A stretch of 64,000 nucleotides of DNA, from NCBI GenBank assembly GCA_903901335.1, contig CAIUQR010000065.1, positions 4,667 to 68,666 on the forward strand. The letters run 5' to 3'. The DNA is from an uncultured delta proteobacterium (GTDB lineage: Bacteria; Desulfobacterota; Desulfobulbia; Desulfobulbales; Desulfocapsaceae). Made by a program: the position numbers and the translations under genes. Shown in pieces: positions 3,608-49,672 of the stretch. Positions within the stretch are counted from its first letter, which is position 1, and each line of letters starts with the position of its first letter. Under the pieces are notes generated by a model that worked only from the letters and a program-made list of their open reading frames with translations, was not told where the DNA came from and did not search any database.

Positions 3608-3644
3608 TGAATGGTCATTCATAACGAAAATGAATGGTCATTCA
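3608..3644. promoter_or_regulatory. Two tandem copies of the palindrome TGAATGGTCATTCA (3608-3621 and 3631-3644), candidate operator
   Basis: Read directly. The 23-nt unit ATGAATGGTCATTCA[T/C]AACGAAA occurs twice head to tail. The copies sit 11 nt and 34 nt downstream of the predicted -10 of the atp b' promoter. Confidence 0.55.
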
Positions 3645-3655
3645 CAACGAAAAAA

Positions 3656-3684
3656 TTTTTACTGTAAATAATCGGCCATGTCAA
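3656..3684 (-). promoter_or_regulatory. Sigma70-type promoter of the atp b'-b-delta-alpha-gamma operon
   Basis: The minus strand reads TTGACA (3684-3679), a 17-nt spacer, then TAAAAA (3661-3656). It lies about 145 nt upstream of the b' ATG. Confidence 0.45.
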
Positions 3685-7068: not shown

Positions 7069-7358
7069 TTCTCCTCCCGTGATGCATGATTTAAAGCTTA
7101 TCCGTAAATAAGCTTTAAGTAAGAAAAAGGATCGGCAATTTTTCCACAATTAACCCTTTTTCCGGTTTGTATTCAAGCGGGAAACGGACTTCTTGATTTT
7201 TTTGCTCCATGATCGCATTCTCTACGACCATGAATGCCACCAATCCGCCCCTTCAATCATGCCCCTTCTTTGCAAAAAATGACAAAATGATCTTTACAAA
7301 ACCGTAACAGGTATTAAATTAAATGCTAAAATAATTTCGCTAAAGGAAAACGGAACAT

Positions 7359-7652
7359 ATGAAAGATGAACAAATAGATGCGTTGGCAAAAATCCTGAAA
7401 TCGATGTCCCATCCGATCCGTCTGAAGATCCTCTGTCTCCTGCAAAATCGGGAGTTATCGGTGGGTGATATCAGAAATCAGGTGGAGACGACCAATGCGA
7501 ACATCTCTCAACATCTGAATATCCTTCGTGCCCAGGGAATCATTGAATTCAGAAAAGAGGCCAATTTCATCTACAACAGGATTACCGACAGACGAATCCT
7601 CGACATGATCACAAAAATGCAGAAGCTGTTCTGTCCGGACCACAAGGAGTAG
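7359..7652 (+). CDS. ArsR/SmtB-family transcriptional regulator
   Basis: 97-aa ORF with HPIRLKILCLL...LSVGDI...NISQHLNILR, a typical winged-helix ArsR core. Confidence 0.85.
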   Translation: MKDEQIDALAKILKSMSHPIRLKILCLLQNRELSVGDIRNQVETTNANISQHLNILRAQGIIEFRKEANFIYNRITDRRILDMITKMQKLFCPDHKE

Positions 7653-7656
7653 TATT

Positions 7657-7869
7657 ATGATCGTTACAGACTGGGTTCACACTATTGCCGGCAGTTTTAT
7701 CCTGGTAAGTCTCGCTCTCGGCGTACCCGCAAGTCCTGTCTTCCACAGCCGGTACTGGCTGTTTTTTACCGCCTTTGTCGGGCTGAATCTCTTCCAGTAC
7801 GGAATCTCAAAATTCTGCCCGCTCGCCATTATCCTCAAGGCCTTAGGGGTGCCGGAAAACAGATCCTGA
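7657..7869 (+). CDS. Small YgaP-like (DUF2892-type) membrane protein
   Basis: 70-aa, two-TM ORF 4 nt after arsR. The motif LNLFQ..ISKFCP is typical of this family, which commonly pairs with ArsR regulators. Confidence 0.75.
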   Translation: MIVTDWVHTIAGSFILVSLALGVPASPVFHSRYWLFFTAFVGLNLFQYGISKFCPLAIILKALGVPENRS

Positions 7870-26686: not shown

Positions 26687-26729
26687 GGCTTTTTGGTAGC
26701 ATGCCTACTCCCCAAAGTCAACGATTTTT

Positions 26730-28022
26730 TTATATTTCCAGTAATTTTTTGAATGACCATTCAGTCATTTCGGCCGTCTTTTCAAGATCATCAATCGTGT
26801 GAGCTGCTGAAATAAAAGCAACTTCAAACTGAGAGGGAGCAAGATAGATTCCCCGGCTCAACATCTGCCGATAATGGCGGCCGTACAAATCCGTGTTCGA
26901 CTTTATCGCCGAGGTAAAATCAGTGACCGGCTCGGAGGTGAAAAATAAGGTCATCAATGAACCGGCTCTGTTGATCTGCACGGAAAGGCCGACTCTTTCA
27001 GCAATGTCCTGTAACCGACCGGCCAGCCAGGCAGATTTTCTGTCAAGTTCATTGTAAAAATCCTGCTTCTGCAGCAATTTGAGTGCAGCAATCCCCGCCG
27101 CCATCGCCAGAGGATTCCCGGACAGGGTTCCTGCCTGATATACAGGGCCATCCGGGGCAATGCAATCCATTATCTCCGCCTTTCCTCCATAGGCGCCTAC
27201 CGGCAGTCCGCCACCGATAATCTTTCCAAGACAGGTCAGGTCGGGGGATACACCGTAGACTTCCTGGGCGCCGCCATACGACAGCCTGAATCCGGTGATG
27301 ACCTCATCAAAGATCAGGACAATCCCCAACACCCTGGTCAACGCCCTGAGTGTGGAAAGAAAATCCGGAGCCGGAAGCACACATCCCATATTGCCGGCCA
27401 CAGGTTCAACGATGACGCAGGCAATCTCAAGGGAGGCGTTGCGAAGTGTCTTTTCGAGTATATCTAAATTGTTATAGGGGATAGAAACGGTATTCCTGAC
27501 AATATCCTCAGGAACACCTGGACTGCCCGGTATCCCCAAGGTAATCACACCGGACCCGGCCTTGACCAAGAAGGAATCAGCATGCCCATGATAGCAACCG
27601 TCAAATTTCACAACTGTTTTTCTACCTGTATATCCCCGGGCAAGACGAACGGCACTCATCGTGGCTTCCGTACCTGAATTGACAAACCGGACCTTTTCAA
27701 TGGAGGAAACAGCCTCCACTACCAGGGATGCCAGGTCTATTTCGGCAGGAGTCGGTGCCCCGAAACTGGTTCCATCCTGGGCTGCCTGGCATATCGCCTT
27801 GATTATGGCAGGGTGGGCATGCCCCATGATCATCGGCCCCCAGGAGCCGACAAAGTCGAGGAACTCGTTCCCGTCTACATCAAAGAGGGATGCCCCTGCA
27901 GCCCTTTTTATAAATAAAGGATCACAGCCGACGGAACGGCAGGCTCTGACCGGACTGTTGACTCCTCCCGGAATCACCTTCCGTGCCTTTTGAAACATAC
28001 TTCCGGAAATCCTGGTTTCCAT
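26730..28022 (-). CDS. hemL: Glutamate-1-semialdehyde 2,1-aminomutase
   Basis: 430-aa ORF with N-terminal [13 protein letters not shown], class III aminotransferase features and a GSA-AM pattern throughout. Confidence 0.95.
26750..26763. promoter_or_regulatory. Exact copy of the palindrome TGAATGGTCATTCA (minus-strand reading) upstream of atpZIBE
   Basis: The plus strand reads TGAATGACCATTCA. It lies inside the last codons of hemL (..TEWSFK..), 96 nt upstream of GTG 26654. Confidence 0.5.
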
Positions 28023-28226: not shown

Positions 28227-28322
28227 AGGCCGGAATTGTGGTCGTTCCCCGTTATCTCGAGCCGGATTAAGATTGGTCATTCAAAGTTTATATATCAATT
28301 TCTATAGTTAAGGAGATACACA

Positions 28323-28649
28323 ATGGCAACCGACAAAGTCCAACAGGTAAGTGACGCTGAGTTTGATGTCAAAATCGGCTCTGAACAACCCTCTCTGGTC
28401 GACTTCTGGGCTCCCTGGTGTGGACCATGTAAAGCTATTGGACCGGTTGTCGAAGATCTAGCCAATGAATATGACGGAAAAGTAAGTATCTACAAGATGA
28501 ATGTTGACGACAATCCAGTTACACCTGGCAAGTTTGGTATCAGGGCGATTCCCACGCTCATCCTCTTTAAAAAAGGAGAGGTTATTGACCAGATTACCGG
28601 AGCAGTTGGAAAGACCCAGTTGGTGAGCCTCATTAACAAGGCTCTATAG
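28323..28649 (+). CDS. trxA: Thioredoxin
   Basis: 108-aa ORF with the WCGPC active site. Confidence 0.93.
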   Translation: MATDKVQQVSDAEFDVKIGSEQPSLVDFWAPWCGPCKAIGPVVEDLANEYDGKVSIYKMNVDDNPVTPGKFGIRAIPTLILFKKGEVIDQITGAVGKTQLVSLINKAL

Positions 28650-37144: not shown

Positions 37145-38293
37145 TCAGGACAAGGAGCCTTCAGACTCGTTCACCTCATCCACCCGTTTCACCCCTTCCA
37201 TCAAGAGCATCATAAAATCCCCGATCTCAGCGGCCTTCATCTCTTGAGGTGAAAGACCAACTGTAAATCGATAAACGCCTTCCTTCTCGGCGAGTATAGA
37301 AAAAATTGCATCCTGGTTGTGCTTATCGGCATAACTTGCATTGATGATACACCCTTCACGGAAAGAAACCTTGGCATTTCCTCTGGAGAGCTCGAGGGAG
37401 AGCGCCCCTGTCTTTTGATGCATATGGAATATCTGAAAAAGTTCGGCCGGGGCCATATCCTTGATTCTCCCATGCATACAGGCCTCGAATTCACGCGTGC
37501 GGACCGTATTGGACTTGGCGAGCCTTTCTGCCAGTAACTTGGCCATAAAAAGCTGTACTGAGGCGGCCTCGCCCATCAAGCGGCCGAAATCATCGCCACT
37601 GATACCAAGGACTTTGGTTTCCCTCGTGGCCCTGATGGATGATTTGGCAATTTTATTTCCGAAATAACTCATCTCGCCACAGACATCACCTTCTCGCAAG
37701 GTCGTAATCTTAACCTGATCGTCCTCGACACTCACCTCACCCGACAGGATAATATAGAGATGTTCGTTGATTTCACCTTTTATGATAAGATACGAACCGG
37801 AATAAACGACCTGTTCCTGCAGACAATCGACGAACCGCTTCAATTGAGTCTGGGGAAAGGCCTTCACCAACGGATAACCGGATATCTTGGCCATAAGTAC
37901 CTGTTGTACGGCAGTAAGCAAGGAACCCTCTTGAACACCATACTCACTTGCGTCAGAGTCGACCCGGATAAATTTGATCAAACCTGTACAGCCGCTGCAG
38001 GTAAACACCCGTGGCTTTTTTCCACCGGCGTCCTCCTTTTCCGTCTCATCAAGAAGTTCGAAAAGCAATTGGGTCATCTCCCGGACCAGGATCAAACACC
38101 CCTCTTTGTCTTTTGGAAAGGTTAACGCCTTCTCCGACAGAACAAGGTGCTCTTCAAGCCTGTACAGAGGGCAGTTATTGTCTTCAATTATTTTGAATAC
38201 GGCTTTAAACGATCCCATACAATGGCAGAGAAGAAAAGAGTTTGAAACAGGTTTCCGGAGACCTTTCCAATCCTCCAAGGAAGTTCTTTGCAC
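37145..38293 (-). CDS. Three-domain signalling protein: Cys-containing N-domain, cyclic-nucleotide-binding domain and PATAN (DUF4388) domain
   Basis: 382-aa ORF. The cNMP module has GEINEHLYIILSGEV...REGDVCGEMSYF. The C-terminal ELFQIFHMHQKTGALSL....AKVSFREG.II.A matches DUF4388. The start is uncertain (GTG 38293 or ATG 38218). Confidence 0.72.
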   Translation of the reverse strand: MQRTSLEDWKGLRKPVSNSFLLCHCMGSFKAVFKIIEDNNCPLYRLEEHLVLSEKALTFPKDKEGCLILVREMTQLLFELLDETEKEDAGGKKPRVFTCSGCTGLIKFIRVDSDASEYGVQEGSLLTAVQQVLMAKISGYPLVKAFPQTQLKRFVDCLQEQVVYSGSYLIIKGEINEHLYIILSGEVSVEDDQVKITTLREGDVCGEMSYFGNKIAKSSIRATRETKVLGISGDDFGRLMGEAASVQLFMAKLLAERLAKSNTVRTREFEACMHGRIKDMAPAELFQIFHMHQKTGALSLELSRGNAKVSFREGCIINASYADKHNQDAIFSILAEKEGVYRFTVGLSPQEMKAAEIGDFMMLLMEGVKRVDEVNESEGSLS

Positions 38294-38512: not shown

Positions 38513-40987
38513 ATGGGCGTCGCAACCAAACAGCTTGAGACCATCTTCAAGGAAATCAATGACCGTTTCAGAACACATCGTTATATCTCAATAAAGCCTG
38601 GGGATGGCGATCCACCGGAACGGTATGAGGTGACATATACTATCGCCGGACTCCACCAGAACAAGAATAAAGAGATTCATGAGGCAAAACATCACTCCAT
38701 TGCCATAACTATTCCATTCGGTTTTCCTCATTTTCCTCCTAATTGTAAACCCATATCACCTGTTTTTCATCCGGATTTTGATCAGGCAGCCATCTGCATT
38801 GGTGATTTCTGGAACAAAGAAAGCACCCTGACCGATCTGATTTTCCATATCGGGCAAATGATCTCCGGAGAAGTCTTTTCAACAGAAAACGCCTTTAATG
38901 AAGAGGCTGTTATCTGGTACAGACAACATAAGGACCGTCTTCCTTTTGAAGTTCTTGATATTTCGAAAGAATCCCCTGCATCTGCGCTCCCCGTTCACGA
39001 AGAGGATTCTTTTACTGCACTGGAGTCTCTTGAGATCGATACCATTGAGGAATCTGATTTTAAGTCGGACTTCGATTCCTTTGCCCCCGGTACAGCTACC
39101 GAGCCTCAAGAAAAGTCACCACAGGCAATGGAAGTCGATATTGATCTTCTGCAGTTAATGGTCAAGCAAAAGCGTTTTTATACCCTCTATAAACACCTAC
39201 AAGCTCTCCCGGTCGACAAGCAATTCAGCAATTTTGATACATTAAAAAATGATGCCTATCTTGAATTGACCAAAGCGAAACAGCTCTTTCAGCAGGGCCT
39301 CGATTATGAACATAAAGGCCAGCCGGGCAAGGCCTTGGAAAAATTTCAACTGTTGACAGCAGCCGTTTCGGACTATCCTGAAATCGAGGAGAGTGTCAAT
39401 CGGGCCAAAAGCGCTTCCAACCTCCTCTACGATTATCTAGAAGAACCCGAAAATAAACCTAAGCAGGCAAGCATGCCGGAGATTGATGTAAGCTCCAAAA
39501 ATGTTCCGAAAAACGAGAAGCTTACTTTTTTTAATGAGAAACCGGAAATACGACTTCCCGTTTTCCCTATCGTTATTGCCGGTGCCTCAGTCATCCTTTT
39601 GAGTTTAGTGATCTTTGTCTTATCTTCCAGTAATTCCCAATTCAAACATGCGGAAGACATGTATTCAGATTGTCAGGTTCTTCTTGAAAAAAACAACTTT
39701 ATCGGCGCTGAACAAAAATGTAACGAGGCTCTCTCCACCGTTAAAAGCATCCAATTCTTAAAAGGTACGGAAAGGGTTGTACTCGCAAATACCATTCAGA
39801 CAACACTTAATTCTCCAAAATTGCGTCAGGGCCTTACAGGCATGGTTTTGAGAAATGGTCGGTATGTCCCCAAAAGCGATGAAGACGCCTTGATTGCTTT
39901 TAATAAGGCGAGCGATGAGGGGGATGCATTCATGGCTAATCTTTCATGGAAAGAGGCAAAGGACCGTTATCAACTCGCCATTACTATCCATTCCAAGATC
40001 GGCACGATAGATACGTCTGCTCTTGAAAAGATCGGCAGGATCAAAAAAAACATGGCACTTGCCCAGGTGAACCTCTTTATTGAAGAGGGAAGGCAATTAA
40101 AAGAATCAGGGGATCTTGAGAAGGCCCTGATCACCCTTGAAAAGGCGCAGGAAACTGCAAAATCTTTGGACGATGCGGTAATGCCTGCCACAATCAAATC
40201 AATCGAGCCTCTCTTATTCATCACCCGGTTCCTTAGATCAAAAAAGGTCGGGGATACCTATTTTGCTGCGGGAGACTGGCAGAATGCCGCTGAACTCTAT
40301 CAAAAAGCTACTGATACTGTAAAAAACATTTCGCCCCCACCGGCGGCAGAATTAGCTGAATTAAATCAAAATAAGGCCAAAGCGGACCTCTTTGCCGCTA
40401 TACAAAGCGGGAAGGAAGCTTTTAACAATGCCCAATGGGATGAAGCTATACGCAGTTATGAATCTGCGATCAGACTGCTGAAAGAAAACAGTGAAATTCT
40501 CAAACAGGTAAACTCCGACGAGAACCGCCAGAAAATCTCCCGGATTATGCTGCAGGCATCTATTATCAGGGATAAGCAGGATGTTGCCAGAAAACTGAAA
40601 GAGGGAAAGAATAAACAGGCTATTGAGAAACTCCAGTCAATCATTGATACGGTTACTAAGAGTTCTTTCAACAGGGAAGAAGAATTTCAACAGGTAGCCA
40701 AAGAGGCAAACCTTTCCATCGCAGAAGCGAAGAAGAATCAGCTTATCTCTGAGAGCGTTGCTTATCTGGTAGAAAATTACAAAGATATCATCTTAAAGAA
40801 TTATTCGGCTGCAAAGAACGATTCTTTGAGCGACCCGAAGGCAACATTTGTAAAAAAACTTGACGAACGGCTGCTTTTCAAGATTGAATGCACTGACAAC
40901 GGGCAAGGAAAACCGCTCCGCCTGATTATGAACTACATCTATGATCCGGCCAACAAACAGTGGAAATTCTATAGTGAAACTCAATAG
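38513..40987 (+). CDS. Single-pass membrane protein with N-terminal UBC/E2-like domain and TPR-like repeats
   Basis: 824-aa ORF. Residues 1-150 follow the E2 core pattern (ITIPFGFPHFPPNCKPISPVFHPDFDQAAICIGDFW). There is one TM helix (PIVIAGASVILLSLVIFVL). The following 450 aa hold repeated W/Y..A...Y..A TPR-like units. Confidence 0.7.
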   Translation: MGVATKQLETIFKEINDRFRTHRYISIKPGDGDPPERYEVTYTIAGLHQNKNKEIHEAKHHSIAITIPFGFPHFPPNCKPISPVFHPDFDQAAICIGDFWNKESTLTDLIFHIGQMISGEVFSTENAFNEEAVIWYRQHKDRLPFEVLDISKESPASALPVHEEDSFTALESLEIDTIEESDFKSDFDSFAPGTATEPQEKSPQAMEVDIDLLQLMVKQKRFYTLYKHLQALPVDKQFSNFDTLKNDAYLELTKAKQLFQQGLDYEHKGQPGKALEKFQLLTAAVSDYPEIEESVNRAKSASNLLYDYLEEPENKPKQASMPEIDVSSKNVPKNEKLTFFNEKPEIRLPVFPIVIAGASVILLSLVIFVLSSSNSQFKHAEDMYSDCQVLLEKNNFIGAEQKCNEALSTVKSIQFLKGTERVVLANTIQTTLNSPKLRQGLTGMVLRNGRYVPKSDEDALIAFNKASDEGDAFMANLSWKEAKDRYQLAITIHSKIGTIDTSALEKIGRIKKNMALAQVNLFIEEGRQLKESGDLEKALITLEKAQETAKSLDDAVMPATIKSIEPLLFITRFLRSKKVGDTYFAAGDWQNAAELYQKATDTVKNISPPPAAELAELNQNKAKADLFAAIQSGKEAFNNAQWDEAIRSYESAIRLLKENSEILKQVNSDENRQKISRIMLQASIIRDKQDVARKLKEGKNKQAIEKLQSIIDTVTKSSFNREEEFQQVAKEANLSIAEAKKNQLISESVAYLVENYKDIILKNYSAAKNDSLSDPKATFVKKLDERLLFKIECTDNGQGKPLRLIMNYIYDPANKQWKFYSETQ

Positions 40988-46498: not shown

Positions 46499-46744
46499 CT
46501 AATTAACGCCTTCGGCTCCCTCTTCATTTTTAATACGAGATTTCAGCGCATACATGGTGGTAGAACCGGAAGACCAAAACATCAGCTTCCCTTCTTTTAC
46601 CAGATCATTTGCTGCATTCTTCACAACACGAGGCTTTGAGTCAACATCGCATTCGTAGAAATCTTTAATATACAACTGAGGCTTCGGAGATTTTGTTGCT
46701 TTCTCCAAAATTGCAAGTTTGAGATCTTCAATGCTTAAGGCCAT
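46499..46744 (-). CDS. dsrD: Dissimilatory sulfite reductase protein D
   Basis: 81-aa ORF directly after dsrB. It is a Lys-rich winged-helix-like small protein of typical DsrD size and position (..KPRVVKNAANDLVKEGKL..WSSGSTTMY). Confidence 0.85.
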   Translation of the reverse strand: MALSIEDLKLAILEKATKSPKPQLYIKDFYECDVDSKPRVVKNAANDLVKEGKLMFWSSGSTTMYALKSRIKNEEGAEGVN

Positions 46745-46787
46745 AACAAATCTCCTTTTTGATTTTTTGAGAAGAAAGCATCAAGGT

Positions 46788-46820
46788 TTCCGACCGGTCC
46801 GACATTCGAGCCGGTCGGAA
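46788..46820 (-). other. Intercistronic perfect 10-bp stem-loop between dsrB and dsrD
   Basis: TTCCGACCGG, a 13-nt loop, then CCGGTCGGAA, 14 nt after the dsrB stop. There is no U-tract, so it is unlikely to be a full terminator. Confidence 0.4.
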
Positions 46821-46833
46821 AATATCACTTTAA

Positions 46834-47961
46834 TTACTTAATATGGCTTGTGTACTTGAACTGAGTTGTAGTACGCCAGGTGTCATATGCAAGGCGATAG
46901 TCGTCGATGCTTTTCTCTGTAAACGGTATATCACATTTCTCGAAAAATTTCTCCCAGCCGATACGCTCGGCCCATTCACCGACGCGCTCATATTTCTTGG
47001 CGTCTCCAGCATAGGCAACAAGAATCTTCTTGATGGCTGCAACGGTCTCAGGCCAGCGAGGAGTAGTATTCGGCAGAAATGGAATAACAAGTTTAGAGAA
47101 TTTCGGCGCACTTATACGGTTGGAAACCTTTCCACCAACAAGGATCGCGATACCGTCTCCTTCCGGATCAGCGAGAGGCATAGCCGGACACATGGTGTAG
47201 CAGTTACCGCAGAACATGCACCGCTCATTGTTAACCTTAACGGTCTTGATCTCTTTTCCGTCAATCTCGATTTTTGCAGGTTTGACAGCGCCAAGGGGAC
47301 AGGAAGCGATAGCCAGAGGCAGCTCGCAGACACCGGTGATACGACTGTGGTCGATCATCGGCGGCTTACGATGCACACCAAGGATGGCAATGTCGGATGC
47401 ATGTACAGCGCCGCACATATTCAGACAACAGGCCAGGGCGATACGGCATTGCGCAGGCAGGGTCATGGAGGTGAAGTAGTCGAACAACTCATCCATAACG
47501 GCCTTGACAACACCGGAGGCATCCGTTGCCGGAGTGTGGCAATGAACCCATCCTTGCGTATGAACGATATTGGTCACACCGGCTCCGGTTCCACCAACGG
47601 GGAACTTATTGCCGCGACTCTTCAGATCGTCCAGCAAAGGCTGAACCTTCGCCTTGGAATCGACCATGAACTCTATATTGTTCCTGGTAGTAAAGCGCAT
47701 GAAGCCATCACAATGTTTATCGGCGATATCACAGATCTCGCGAACAAACTCAACTGACATCAAACGCACACCGCCGGCTCGAATCGTGTAGACCTCGGCC
47801 CCTGTCTCGGACTTATGCAACAGGACACCGGGCTGAAGAATCTCATGCCAGAGCCATTTGCCTTTGTTTTCCTTGATGACAGCGGGGAAAAACTGCTCAT
47901 AATAGAGCGGACCGAGATCGGAAATCCTTCCTTCCATCGGTTTTTCTGGATTATATCCCAT
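46834..47961 (-). CDS. dsrB: Dissimilatory sulfite reductase beta subunit
   Basis: 375-aa ORF with ferredoxin-insert cysteines [12 protein letters not shown] and siroheme/FeS Cys motifs. Follows dsrA. Confidence 0.95.
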
Positions 47962-48015
47962 GATGTAAAACTCCTTATAGTATCATTGATAAAAACGAAT
48001 CAAATCATAACAGCA

Positions 48016-49296
48016 TCAAGCTGCATGTTTCTTTCGGAATTCGACGACATCACGCTCAAATCCGCCGGGAACCTCTTCATCCTGCCAGAAAACATAAGGG
48101 TTGGACCGAGGCTCTTTAACATGCTGCGGAATCGGCTCAATGCCCATGACCTTGATAAAGGTAGGCAGACCGACACGCTGCATGGTCTCACCGACACGCT
48201 CACGGTTCTTGCCGACTTCCATCCACCAATCCCAAACGGTTTCAATAAAGTTTACCAGTTCTTCGAAGTCATTGTCCTTGGAAACCTTCATGAAAGGTAC
48301 GATCAGGGTTGCAAACTGGGCGCCGTCCAGGATCGGGGCCTTGGCGCCGACACAGATGGTAGCGCCGGTGTCAACACCGGGGCGAAGGGCACGCGGCATA
48401 ACATTGATACAATGCATGCAACGGGTACACTCTTTATCATCTATCTTCAGCTGGCCGCCTTCCATCCACATACATTCTGTCGGACAAAGGCCGATGACCT
48501 CTTTCTGGATGTCGAACTTACCCCAATCACGTCCACTGTGAGCACCGCCGTTTGCCGGATAATTGCCGGCGATATATTCTTTTACGGCTGCCTGGTCGAT
48601 ACGGATATTATCCCTCCAGGTGCCGATAACGGCAATATCGGAGCGGGCAATTGCTGCTACGCAGTCATTGGCGCAACCGGAAAATTTAAACTTAAACTTA
48701 TAGGGGAAGGCAGGGCGATGAATCTCGTCCTGATATTTCATGGTCAGGAAATAACAGCACTCTTCTGTGTCATAGCAGGACCACTCGCAGCGGGACTGGC
48801 CGATACAGTTGGCCGGAGTACGCAGATTGGAGCCTGAGCCGCCGAGATCCTGATTCAGGTCATGGGTCATATCCCAGAATAAGGGCTCAAGATTTTCAGT
48901 CCGGGTACCGAGGAGGATGATATCACCGGTGGACCCATGGAAGTTGGTCATACCGGATCCATATTTCTCCCAGAGATCCATCAACGCGCGGAGATGCTTT
49001 GTGGAATAGTATTTCGATGACGGCTGGGCAACACGAACAGTATGAAAATGCTCAACACCCGGGAACCGCTTCGGTAGATCCGAATACCGTCCGACAATAC
49101 CACCACCGTAGCCAAAAACACCTACGATCCCACCGTGTTTCCAGTGGGAAATCCTGTCCGTATAAGACAATTCAAGCTGACCAAGAATATCCCAAACCTC
49201 GGGCTTGGTTTCGGCCTGGTGCTTCATGTCGGTAACGAAGCTTGGCCACGGGCCACTCTCCAATTGATCCAACAAGGGCGTTTCATGCTTTGCCAT
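48016..49296 (-). CDS. dsrA: Dissimilatory sulfite reductase alpha subunit
   Basis: The ATG at 49296 follows AAGGAGGAAATC and gives MAKHETPLLDQLESGPWPSFV. CTRCMHCINV ferredoxin-like insert. Confidence 0.95.
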   Translation of the reverse strand: MAKHETPLLDQLESGPWPSFVTDMKHQAETKPEVWDILGQLELSYTDRISHWKHGGIVGVFGYGGGIVGRYSDLPKRFPGVEHFHTVRVAQPSSKYYSTKHLRALMDLWEKYGSGMTNFHGSTGDIILLGTRTENLEPLFWDMTHDLNQDLGGSGSNLRTPANCIGQSRCEWSCYDTEECCYFLTMKYQDEIHRPAFPYKFKFKFSGCANDCVAAIARSDIAVIGTWRDNIRIDQAAVKEYIAGNYPANGGAHSGRDWGKFDIQKEVIGLCPTECMWMEGGQLKIDDKECTRCMHCINVMPRALRPGVDTGATICVGAKAPILDGAQFATLIVPFMKVSKDNDFEELVNFIETVWDWWMEVGKNRERVGETMQRVGLPTFIKVMGIEPIPQHVKEPRSNPYVFWQDEEVPGGFERDVVEFRKKHAA

Positions 49297-49561
49297 GATT
49301 TCCTCCTTTGAATTTCTATTAAACTGCAACCTTTACCTAACAAATAGACTATAACCAGATTCCGTCTCTAAACAACAGGCCGGATATGGTTGTACACCAG
49401 CCCAAACGACAAGAGAACTATGAAAAAATTACAGTATATTTCCCTGCAACTTAACATTTATGTATACTACATTGAGTAAATACCAGCCGATCCGCTGTCA
49501 GAACAACTCCGCTGGTTTTGCTTTGAGTTACTCGTAGATCACAACACATACAGTGTTCTAC

Positions 49562-49575
49562 TGAATAACCATTCA
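49562..49575. promoter_or_regulatory. Palindrome TGAATAACCATTCA (one mismatch to the atp operator), promoter-proximal dsrA site
   Basis: Read directly. On the minus strand it begins 7 nt downstream of the predicted dsrA -10. Confidence 0.5.
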
Positions 49576-49582
49576 GCGCGTG

Positions 49583-49611
49583 AGAATATCCGTGAACATC
49601 TCTTTTGTCAA
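49583..49611 (-). promoter_or_regulatory. Sigma70-type promoter of dsrABD
   Basis: The minus strand reads TTGACA (49611-49606), a 17-nt spacer, then TATTCT (49588-49583). This implies a leader of about 280 nt. Confidence 0.45.
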
Positions 49612-49641
49612 CAAAAAACCGAATTTGACTTATGCACAAAA

Positions 49642-49655
49642 TGAATGGTTATTCA
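49642..49655. promoter_or_regulatory. Palindrome TGAATGGTTATTCA, promoter-distal dsrA site
   Basis: Exact reverse complement of the 49562 site, 80 bp away. It lies 31 nt upstream of the -35. Confidence 0.5.
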
Positions 49656-49672
49656 TTGTTTATTCATACCTC

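Follow-up and report, generated by a model that had tools for sequence, protein, structure and literature searches.

Outside Desulfovibrio, little is understood of how dissimilatory sulfate and sulfite reduction is controlled at the level of transcription. The closest described counterpart of the system presented here is the Rex regulon predicted for Desulfovibrio and the Desulfovibrionales, in which dsrABD and other genes of sulfate reduction are governed by a single repressor; in a Desulfovibrio rex mutant, however, no such control of dsrABD was evident (PMC4045070). The corresponding sites are listed under the name “HcpR” in PMC545781. At the level of the DNA element, the operators of SmtB/ArsR repressors are 12-2-12 imperfect inverted repeats, e.g., at smtA, ziaA, aztA, and nmtA, and operators that share the core of the boxes described below and overlap the transcription start site (TSS) are typical of characterized repressors (PMC8790569). 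Sites of the arginine repressor ArgR occur in pairs or singly, and ArgR activates or represses (PMC11172107). A palindromic operator that defines a small regulon is, in itself, an ordinary kind of object.

Here we describe such a putative operator in the Desulfobulbales, a lineage of sulfate reducers, sulfur disproportionators, and relatives of the cable bacteria. Like the Rex regulon of the Desulfovibrionales, it features one palindromic sequence on several promoters of sulfate reduction and energy conservation, so that the predicted regulon is functionally analogous to that of Rex in Desulfovibrio, with a different motif and in a different order. Unlike Rex sites, the boxes read GAA-N6-TTC, and they are present in nearly all sampled dsrA loci of the Desulfobulbales type and in 0 of 26 loci of the Desulfobacterales type. 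The concept of a clade-restricted repressor that coordinates ATP synthase with respiratory genes recalls HgtR of Geobacter, which Ueki and Lovley reportedly described in 2010 as a lineage-specific repressor of energy-generation genes, although the lineage is unrelated and the motif is different. What is defined here is a highly conserved dsrA promoter, an operator that is sharply delimited in nearly all sampled Desulfobulbales dsrA promoters, and a link from this operator to both ATP synthase operons. Its conservation across a whole order of sulfur bacteria points to an undescribed, predicted regulator of energy metabolism, which should be of moderate to high interest to researchers working on sulfur-cycle microbes. 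Neither the motif nor its targets and phylogenetic range seem to have been described: in line with the initial annotation of this DNA, which considered the motif uncharacterized, a full-text search for the motif strings, with the subscription literature and RegPrecise lying outside it, returned no match. A 16-bp bait for DNA-affinity capture would offer a handle on both the regulator and its signal.

The dsrABD promoter and its boxes

In the window (the whole 64-kb stretch of DNA analyzed), two 14-nt boxes, TGAATAACCATTCA at positions 49562 to 49575 and TGAATGGTTATTCA at 49642 to 49655, lie on either side of the minus-strand dsrA promoter. The initial annotation had described them as exact reverse complements, each one mismatch away from the operator of the ATP synthase genes. 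Both statements were borne out, the boxes forming a 14-nt inverted pair with 100% complementary arms (66 nt between the arms, or 80 nt from start to start), each of which differs at one position from the atp box TGAATGGTCATTCA. While the 80-bp spacing stands, its rendering as about 8 helical turns does not, given that it amounts to 7.6 turns at 10.5 bp per turn and ranges from 78 to 81 bp in Desulfocapsaceae-like genomes with two boxes.

The promoter between the boxes, TTGACA (49611 to 49606), a 17-nt spacer, and TATTCT (49588 to 49583), had likewise been read correctly, and it is the only σ70-like site between positions 49290 and 49700. It is located about 280 nt 5′ of dsrA, whose ATG is at 49296. 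Its −35 hexamer (49606 to 49611, minus strand) is near-invariant among 46 anchored promoters and is abutted on its upstream side by a UP-element-like T-tract, TTTTTT (49613 to 49618), the combination TTTTTTGTTGACAAA being kept in both Desulfobulbales and Desulfobacterales; the −10 hexamer (49583 to 49588) follows after the 17-nt spacer. The putatively regulated operon extends from 46499 to 49296 on the minus strand and comprises dsrA (48016 to 49296), dsrB (46834 to 47961), and dsrD (46499 to 46744), preceded by an inferred 5′ leader of about 280 nt. The proximal box (49562 to 49575; cTGAATGGTTATTCAg on the gene strand) begins 7 nt after the −10 hexamer, as annotated, and would cover roughly +2 to +15 of the predicted transcript. 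The distal box (49642 to 49655; aTGAATAACCATTCAt on the gene strand) is 30 nt upstream of the −35 hexamer, not 31 nt as previously noted, with its center near −72.5 and 18 nt past the stop codon of the co-directional upstream gene pgi; no terminator was predicted between pgi and dsrA. Abutting the distal box is a further half-site-like element, an 11-nt direct repeat (TGGTTATTCAT/TGTTTATTCAT; repeat pair at 49646 to 49667, extra copy at 49657 to 49667).

To place these elements in a wider context, we compared 80 dsrA loci from different genomes, 54 Desulfobulbales-like and 26 Desulfobacterales-like; the DsrA of the window is at most 90% identical to that of any of them, its nearest relatives being Desulfocapsaceae. 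The promoter, TTTTTT(G/A)TTGACAAA-17-(g)ATATTCT, hardly varies in Desulfobulbales, where 47 of the 54 loci match its pattern, and a clearly related form is found in Desulfobacterales. Since TTGACA-17-TATTCT and the T-tract are conserved across two orders, this is very likely the real dsrA promoter, from which we infer the TSS. The strength of this conservation, spanning about 60 nt around the −35 region (T-tract, TTGACAA, 17 nt, and TAT...; L001 to L080), is unusual over two orders.

The proximal box, in the form TGAA-N6-TTCA, occurs in 39 of the 47 Desulfobulbales promoters and begins 30 to 33 nt after the −35 hexamer, i.e., 7 to 10 nt after the −10 hexamer; four further loci (L019, L022, L029, and L052) carry a box though they fail the promoter pattern. 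The upstream box, 27 to 31 nt 5′ of the −35 hexamer, was found in 21 dsrA loci and is confined to Desulfocapsaceae-like genomes; both boxes are present in 14 Desulfobulbales-like loci. Neither box occurs in any of the 26 Desulfobacterales-like loci, though 15 of these still show the T-tract/TTGAC promoter. As background, 509 kb of related loci contained eight relaxed TGAA-N6-TTCA matches and no strict one. Conservation of the dyads in relatives had been named beforehand as the test of their relevance, and it proved strong at both dsrA and atp loci.

The comparison also changes how the pair is to be read. The bracketing of the promoter by two inverted copies, emphasized by the initial annotation, is real in the window, but the distal box is a Desulfocapsaceae-like feature and exact complementarity is specific to this genome: in the 14 two-box relatives, the centers are complementary at 0 to 3 of 4 positions and the whole boxes at 8 to 13 of 14. 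Judged from these alignments, the two dsrA boxes are copies of one palindrome that do not form a conserved stem, and the ancestral, order-wide site is the TSS-proximal box alone, with the bracketing pair no part of the ancestral design. Other arrangements occur as well. In some Desulfobulbaceae (L019, L026, and L029), a second dsrA box lies 25 bp downstream of the first, and in seven Desulfocapsaceae genomes the proximal box is degenerate with the distal box kept 29 to 30 nt from the −35 hexamer.

Three further observations concern the dsrA region. Two cable-bacteria loci (L020, “Candidatus Electronema halotolerans,” and L023, “Candidatus Electrothrix aarhusensis”) and a similar metagenome-assembled genome (MAG; L031) keep the TTGACAAA promoter about 110 to 180 nt upstream of dsrA; at the operator position, the cable bacteria read CTGAGAGTAAGCAAT (L020) and CTAAATAAGTAATCA (L023), so that the box is lost or degenerate there, unlike in the sister dsrA loci of Desulfobulbus, which have perfect boxes. 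The dissimilatory sulfur pathway of cable bacteria is thought to run in reverse, and this apparent loss offers a natural comparison. Second, a 40-nt segment directly preceding the start codon of dsrA (GGTAAAGGTTGCAGTTTAATAGAAATTCAAAGGAGGAAATC; 49297 to 49340 in the window and the equivalent in L001 to L016) is highly conserved among Desulfocapsaceae, unlike the other parts of the 170- to 280-nt leader, and may serve translational control or as a standby site. Third, the genes upstream of dsrA in relatives are mostly pgi-rpe-dprA, a CoA-disulfide-reductase/rhodanese gene, biotin carboxylase, or proS, with no regulator gene among these usual neighbors.

One motif at three promoters

The true unit is not the pair but a single near-palindrome, TGAAT-N4-ATTCA (6-2-6: TGAATG-GT-CATTCA). 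The corresponding pattern TGAATNNNNATTCA is matched exactly at five places in the window, where 0.15 matches would be expected; none of 100 shuffles reached this number, and all five are located at three promoters: those of dsrABD, atpF′FHA, and atpZIBE. This agrees with the earlier proposal that dsr and ATP synthase share operator-type sites. A weight-matrix scan of the window scored these five sites at 21 to 25 bits, with the next best site at 13.6 bits. In a matrix of 80 distinct sites, TGAA and TTCA are fixed by the selection pattern; T/A reaches 82% at positions 5 and 10, a purine/pyrimidine preference is seen at positions 6 to 9, and information drops to at most 0.16 bit at positions beyond ±2 of the 14-mer. 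Arms that are invariant (TGAA/TTCA by selection) next to a center and flanks that drift are the signature of a site for a dimeric protein. The other sulfur and energy genes at the inspected loci carried no box. A half-site-like match, AGATTGGTCATTCA at 28270 to 28283, precedes trxA (28323 to 28649) by 53 nt and is probably due to chance, since no box occurs at the equivalent place in three related loci (L208 to L210).

At the atpF′FHA... operon, the minus-strand promoter (3655 to 3684) consists of TTGACA (3684 to 3679), a 17- or 18-nt spacer, and TAAAAAT. Box 1 (3631 to 3644) is nearest to it, starting 10 to 11 nt after the −10 element, and box 2 (3608 to 3621) follows in tandem 23 bp downstream of box 1. 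We compared this region with Desulfomarina profundi, a Desulfoprunum benzoelyticum-type contig, a Desulfocapsaceae MAG, and a metagenome contig: promoter and first box are kept in all four (L137, L205, L206, and L207), the second box in two (L137 and L207).

The atpZIBE operon is organized differently. Its single box (26750 to 26763) is embedded in the final codons of hemL, at a distance of 28 nt from the downstream −35 hexamer, and is centered near −70.5. The minus-strand promoter (26693 to 26721) reads TTGACT (26721 to 26716), a 17-nt spacer, and TACCAA (26698 to 26693), hexamers that are conserved in L208 to L210; an alternative TATAAT as the −10 element is not conserved in these loci. Over the four loci the promoter takes the form TTGACT-17-TAyCAA, with the box 28 to 29 nt upstream of the −35 hexamer. 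Four genomes, of which two represent named genera, share without any difference (100% identity) a stretch of 24 nt comprising the box, ATGACTGAATGGTCATTCAAAAAA, hemL third-codon positions included, while adjacent codons vary. Identity at synonymous positions indicates that selection acts here on the DNA. The claim that the dsrA operator is placed like that of the atp b′ operon, however, does not hold: the atpF′ boxes are in tandem and both downstream of the −10 element, and the atpZ box is upstream of the −35 hexamer.

A putative repressor and its possible family

We propose, with a probability of roughly 0.6, that the dsrA and atp boxes genuinely serve as an operator bound by one dimeric transcription factor, which would most likely be a repressor that makes use of auxiliary sites. 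A homodimeric (or higher-order) factor would recognize the 14- to 16-bp palindrome aCTGAAT-RRYY-ATTCAGt and co-regulate a small Desulfobulbales regulon of energy conservation, including at least dsrABD and both F-type ATP synthase operons. The order-wide ancestral site lies directly 3′ of the −10 hexamer, over the inferred TSS, where a bound protein would block open-complex formation or promoter escape; it is this predicted block of initiation that makes repression the most likely sign of regulation. Likewise, a palindrome that sits just past the −10 element in two independent promoters and is kept over an order is best read as the operator of a repressor. The extra boxes, near −72 at dsrA in Desulfocapsaceae and 23 to 25 bp downstream at atpF′ and at dsrA of some Desulfobulbaceae, would raise occupancy or act on RNA polymerase. 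Simple occlusion cannot explain atpZIBE, which has the upstream box only.

It is attractive, if tentative, to go further and to see in this factor a lineage-specific master regulator of energy conservation in the Desulfobulbales, distinct from Rex and from known ArsR and ArgR proteins, that would bind aCTGAAT-RRYY-ATTCAGt, repress at the TSS, act on RNA polymerase from about −71, and thereby couple ATP synthase with dissimilatory sulfite reductase; cable bacteria would have lost its operator at dsrA. Among the candidate regulator genes examined, none had a box upstream of itself. As rough odds for the family, we place an ArsR/SmtB-like factor first, an ArgR-like factor well below it, and Rex lower still, with the remainder going to some other family.

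A factor of the ArsR/SmtB family, possibly the BigR/SqrR-like protein encoded at 7359 to 7652 of the window, would make the expression of dsr and atp responsive to thiols, persulfides, or a metal; we regard this as possible but doubtful. In the 80-site matrix (with TGAA/TTCA preset), the boxes share with SmtB/ArsR operators the core TGAAYR-NN-YRTTCA, as in TTGAATA-GT-TGTTCAA, and like these they occur in one or two copies near or over the TSS, as predicted from the placement of the proximal dsrA box (7 nt) and atpF′ box 1 (10 to 14 nt) after the −10 elements, a position from which SmtB/ArsR proteins act by repression. Moreover, the only classical regulator gene of the window encodes an ArsR protein, both cysteines of which align with BigR, and this gene holds its position near alaS-atpF′ in three other genomes; synteny of the region is conserved generally, however, so that proximity is weak evidence. 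The outer AATA/TATT arms of the extended 12-2-12 symmetry are not conserved here (at most 0.16 bit beyond ±2 of the 14-mer). The putative regulon consists of core bioenergetic operons instead of metal-resistance genes, and no adjacent ArsR gene carries the box. In particular, the promoter of the 7359-to-7652 gene lacks a TGAAT box and features a different conserved AT-rich element, TATTAAATTAAAT, leaving this BigR-like protein unsupported as the factor.

The locus of this gene deserves a description of its own. The segment from 7359 to 7869 (plus strand) encodes a 97-amino-acid BigR/HlyU/SqrR-type ArsR regulator, likely a persulfide or redox sensor, followed by a YgaP-like membrane protein of 70 amino acids. 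The promoter region (7270 to 7358) reads TTTACA...TATTAAATTAAAT and is conserved in four genomes, and the gene pair adjoins isochorismatase-alaS-atpF′ in Desulfomarina, Desulfoprunum, and a MAG.

A metagenome scan for paired boxes returned mostly unrelated repeats and AT-rich pairs resembling ARG boxes. Beyond these, it picked up an orthologous atpF′ promoter (L137) and a CadC-like ArsR gene (L126), and no autoregulated candidate for the dsr/atp factor. The promoter of this ArsR gene, on a low-GC contig, contains two TTGAATAnnTATTCAA boxes (425 to 480), one in the spacer and the other directly past TATAAT; a metal-sensor repressor here uses the same core in textbook fashion, which speaks for the ArsR/SmtB reading to that extent. 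Several unrelated high-GC metagenome contigs (L094, L166, L170, L197, and L102) share recurring paired boxes, GTGAATCAGGATTCAC/GTGAATCCTGATTCAC, which look like a different widespread operator family with TGAAT arms.

A second candidate protein was a DUF134 (UPF0251) helix-turn-helix protein related to σ70 region 4. The protein has a Cys-rich motif at its N terminus. In one subclade of the Desulfobulbales (L034, L038, L039, L041, and L046), its gene is oriented divergently from dsrA, and in another genome (L213/L214, 6001 to 12288) the gene lies beside genes for NifX-like, DsrE, TusA, and FlpD/HdrA-like proteins. Its association with sulfur-energy genes is recurrent, but no TGAAT box was found nearby: DUF134 genes in six other Desulfobulbales loci had none within 6 kb, leaving DUF134 unsupported as the factor.

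Alternative readings of the boxes

Returning to the putative repressor with auxiliary sites, its main competitor on the mode of action, which we rank second and consider unlikely, is a dual regulator. According to this model, the same factor on the same sites would activate from near −71 by contacting RNA polymerase in the style of class I activators and repress from over the TSS, resulting in a concentration- or ligand-dependent window of expression. It draws on the tight spacing of the upstream boxes from the −35 hexamer, 29 to 31 nt in 20 of 21 dsrA loci and 28 to 29 nt in four atpZ loci, with centers between −70.5 and −72.5. A distance fixed to within 1 to 2 nt speaks for an interaction with either RNA polymerase or another bound dimer, and its persistence at loci with a decayed proximal box is a hint that the upstream position may have a function of its own, possibly activation. 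ArgR-type factors, which use this half-site, both activate and repress (PMC11172107). However, the fixed distance is equally compatible with looping to the proximal site, and most Desulfobulbales have the TSS-proximal dsrA box only. Moreover, dual action would mean that atpZIBE, with its upstream box, and atpF′FHAGDC, with its downstream boxes, are regulated in opposite directions, yet both encode parts of one enzyme. We also considered the upstream boxes as roadblocks to read-through from pgi or hemL, since they lie at the end of a preceding co-directional gene with no predicted terminator; such a roadblock is disfavored, as it would not need the fixed distance to the −35 hexamer.

Reading the boxes as ARG boxes, with ArgR/AhrC (the arginine repressor) or one of its paralogues as the binding protein, appears improbable. 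The TGAAT/ATTCA arms and 4-bp center do fit the consensus WWTGMATWWWWATKCANW, and the occurrence of single or multiple sites and the dual potential of the factor are further likenesses to the ArgR/AhrC system (PMC11172107). In contrast to the A/T-rich center (WWWW) of ARG boxes, however, an all-A/T center was found in none of the 80 distinct sites, in which the A/T fraction of the center equals background (0.47). Neither does the arrangement agree: boxes here are single or 23 to 25 or 78 to 81 bp apart, vs the tandem ARG boxes usual in front of arginine metabolism genes, with a spacing of about 21 bp (two helical turns), and the targets are dsr and atp, with no link to arginine genes.

Even less probable is that they are divergent Rex operators, through which Rex would sense NADH/NAD+ and control dsr and atp as predicted in Desulfovibrio. 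The gene set does match the predicted Desulfovibrio Rex regulon (PMC4045070), and one atp site, reading TTGTGAAT..., matches a Rex half-site. The boxes, however, do not form the 18-bp Rex palindrome TTGTGAA-N4-TTCACAA, in which GAA and TTC are 4 bp apart rather than the 6 bp of the boxes. A search of the window allowing up to 3 mismatches gave four weak Rex matches where 3.2 would be expected, all of them away from the dsr and atp promoters, and no Rex gene (CoA-binding domain plus N-terminal winged helix) was found among the scanned open reading frames of the window or within 10 kb of the atp operons. The half-site spacing and the lack of a Rex-like site at the three promoters speak strongly against Rex as the factor binding there. 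Two other operator classes differ from the boxes in their geometry: CRP/FNR-type sites have a TGA-N6-TCA core (TGTGA-N6-TCACA or TTGAT-N4-ATCAA), the boxes TGA-N8-TCA, and the central CG of the 14-bp LacI-family or cre palindrome is present in 1 of the 80 sites.

Least credible of all is a structural role of the exact 14-nt inverted repeat, as a cruciform or as a long-range RNA stem in pgi read-through transcripts, which we reject because the 100% complementarity of the arms in this genome, albeit with no terminator between pgi and dsrA, shows no covariation and is lost in relatives, the motif elsewhere is single or in tandem direct orientation, and the 280-nt leader neither matches an Rfam family nor folds significantly (z = −1.36), results that also speak against an RNA element within it.

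Finally, two neighboring genes of the window stood out by their domain content. The gene at 38513 to 40987 (plus strand) encodes an 824-amino-acid protein with weak matches to a ubiquitin-conjugating enzyme (UQ_con), TPR, and MIT domains, which is an unusual combination, and the adjoining gene at 37145 to 38293 (minus strand) encodes a protein in which a cNMP-binding domain is, equally unusually, combined with DUF4388.
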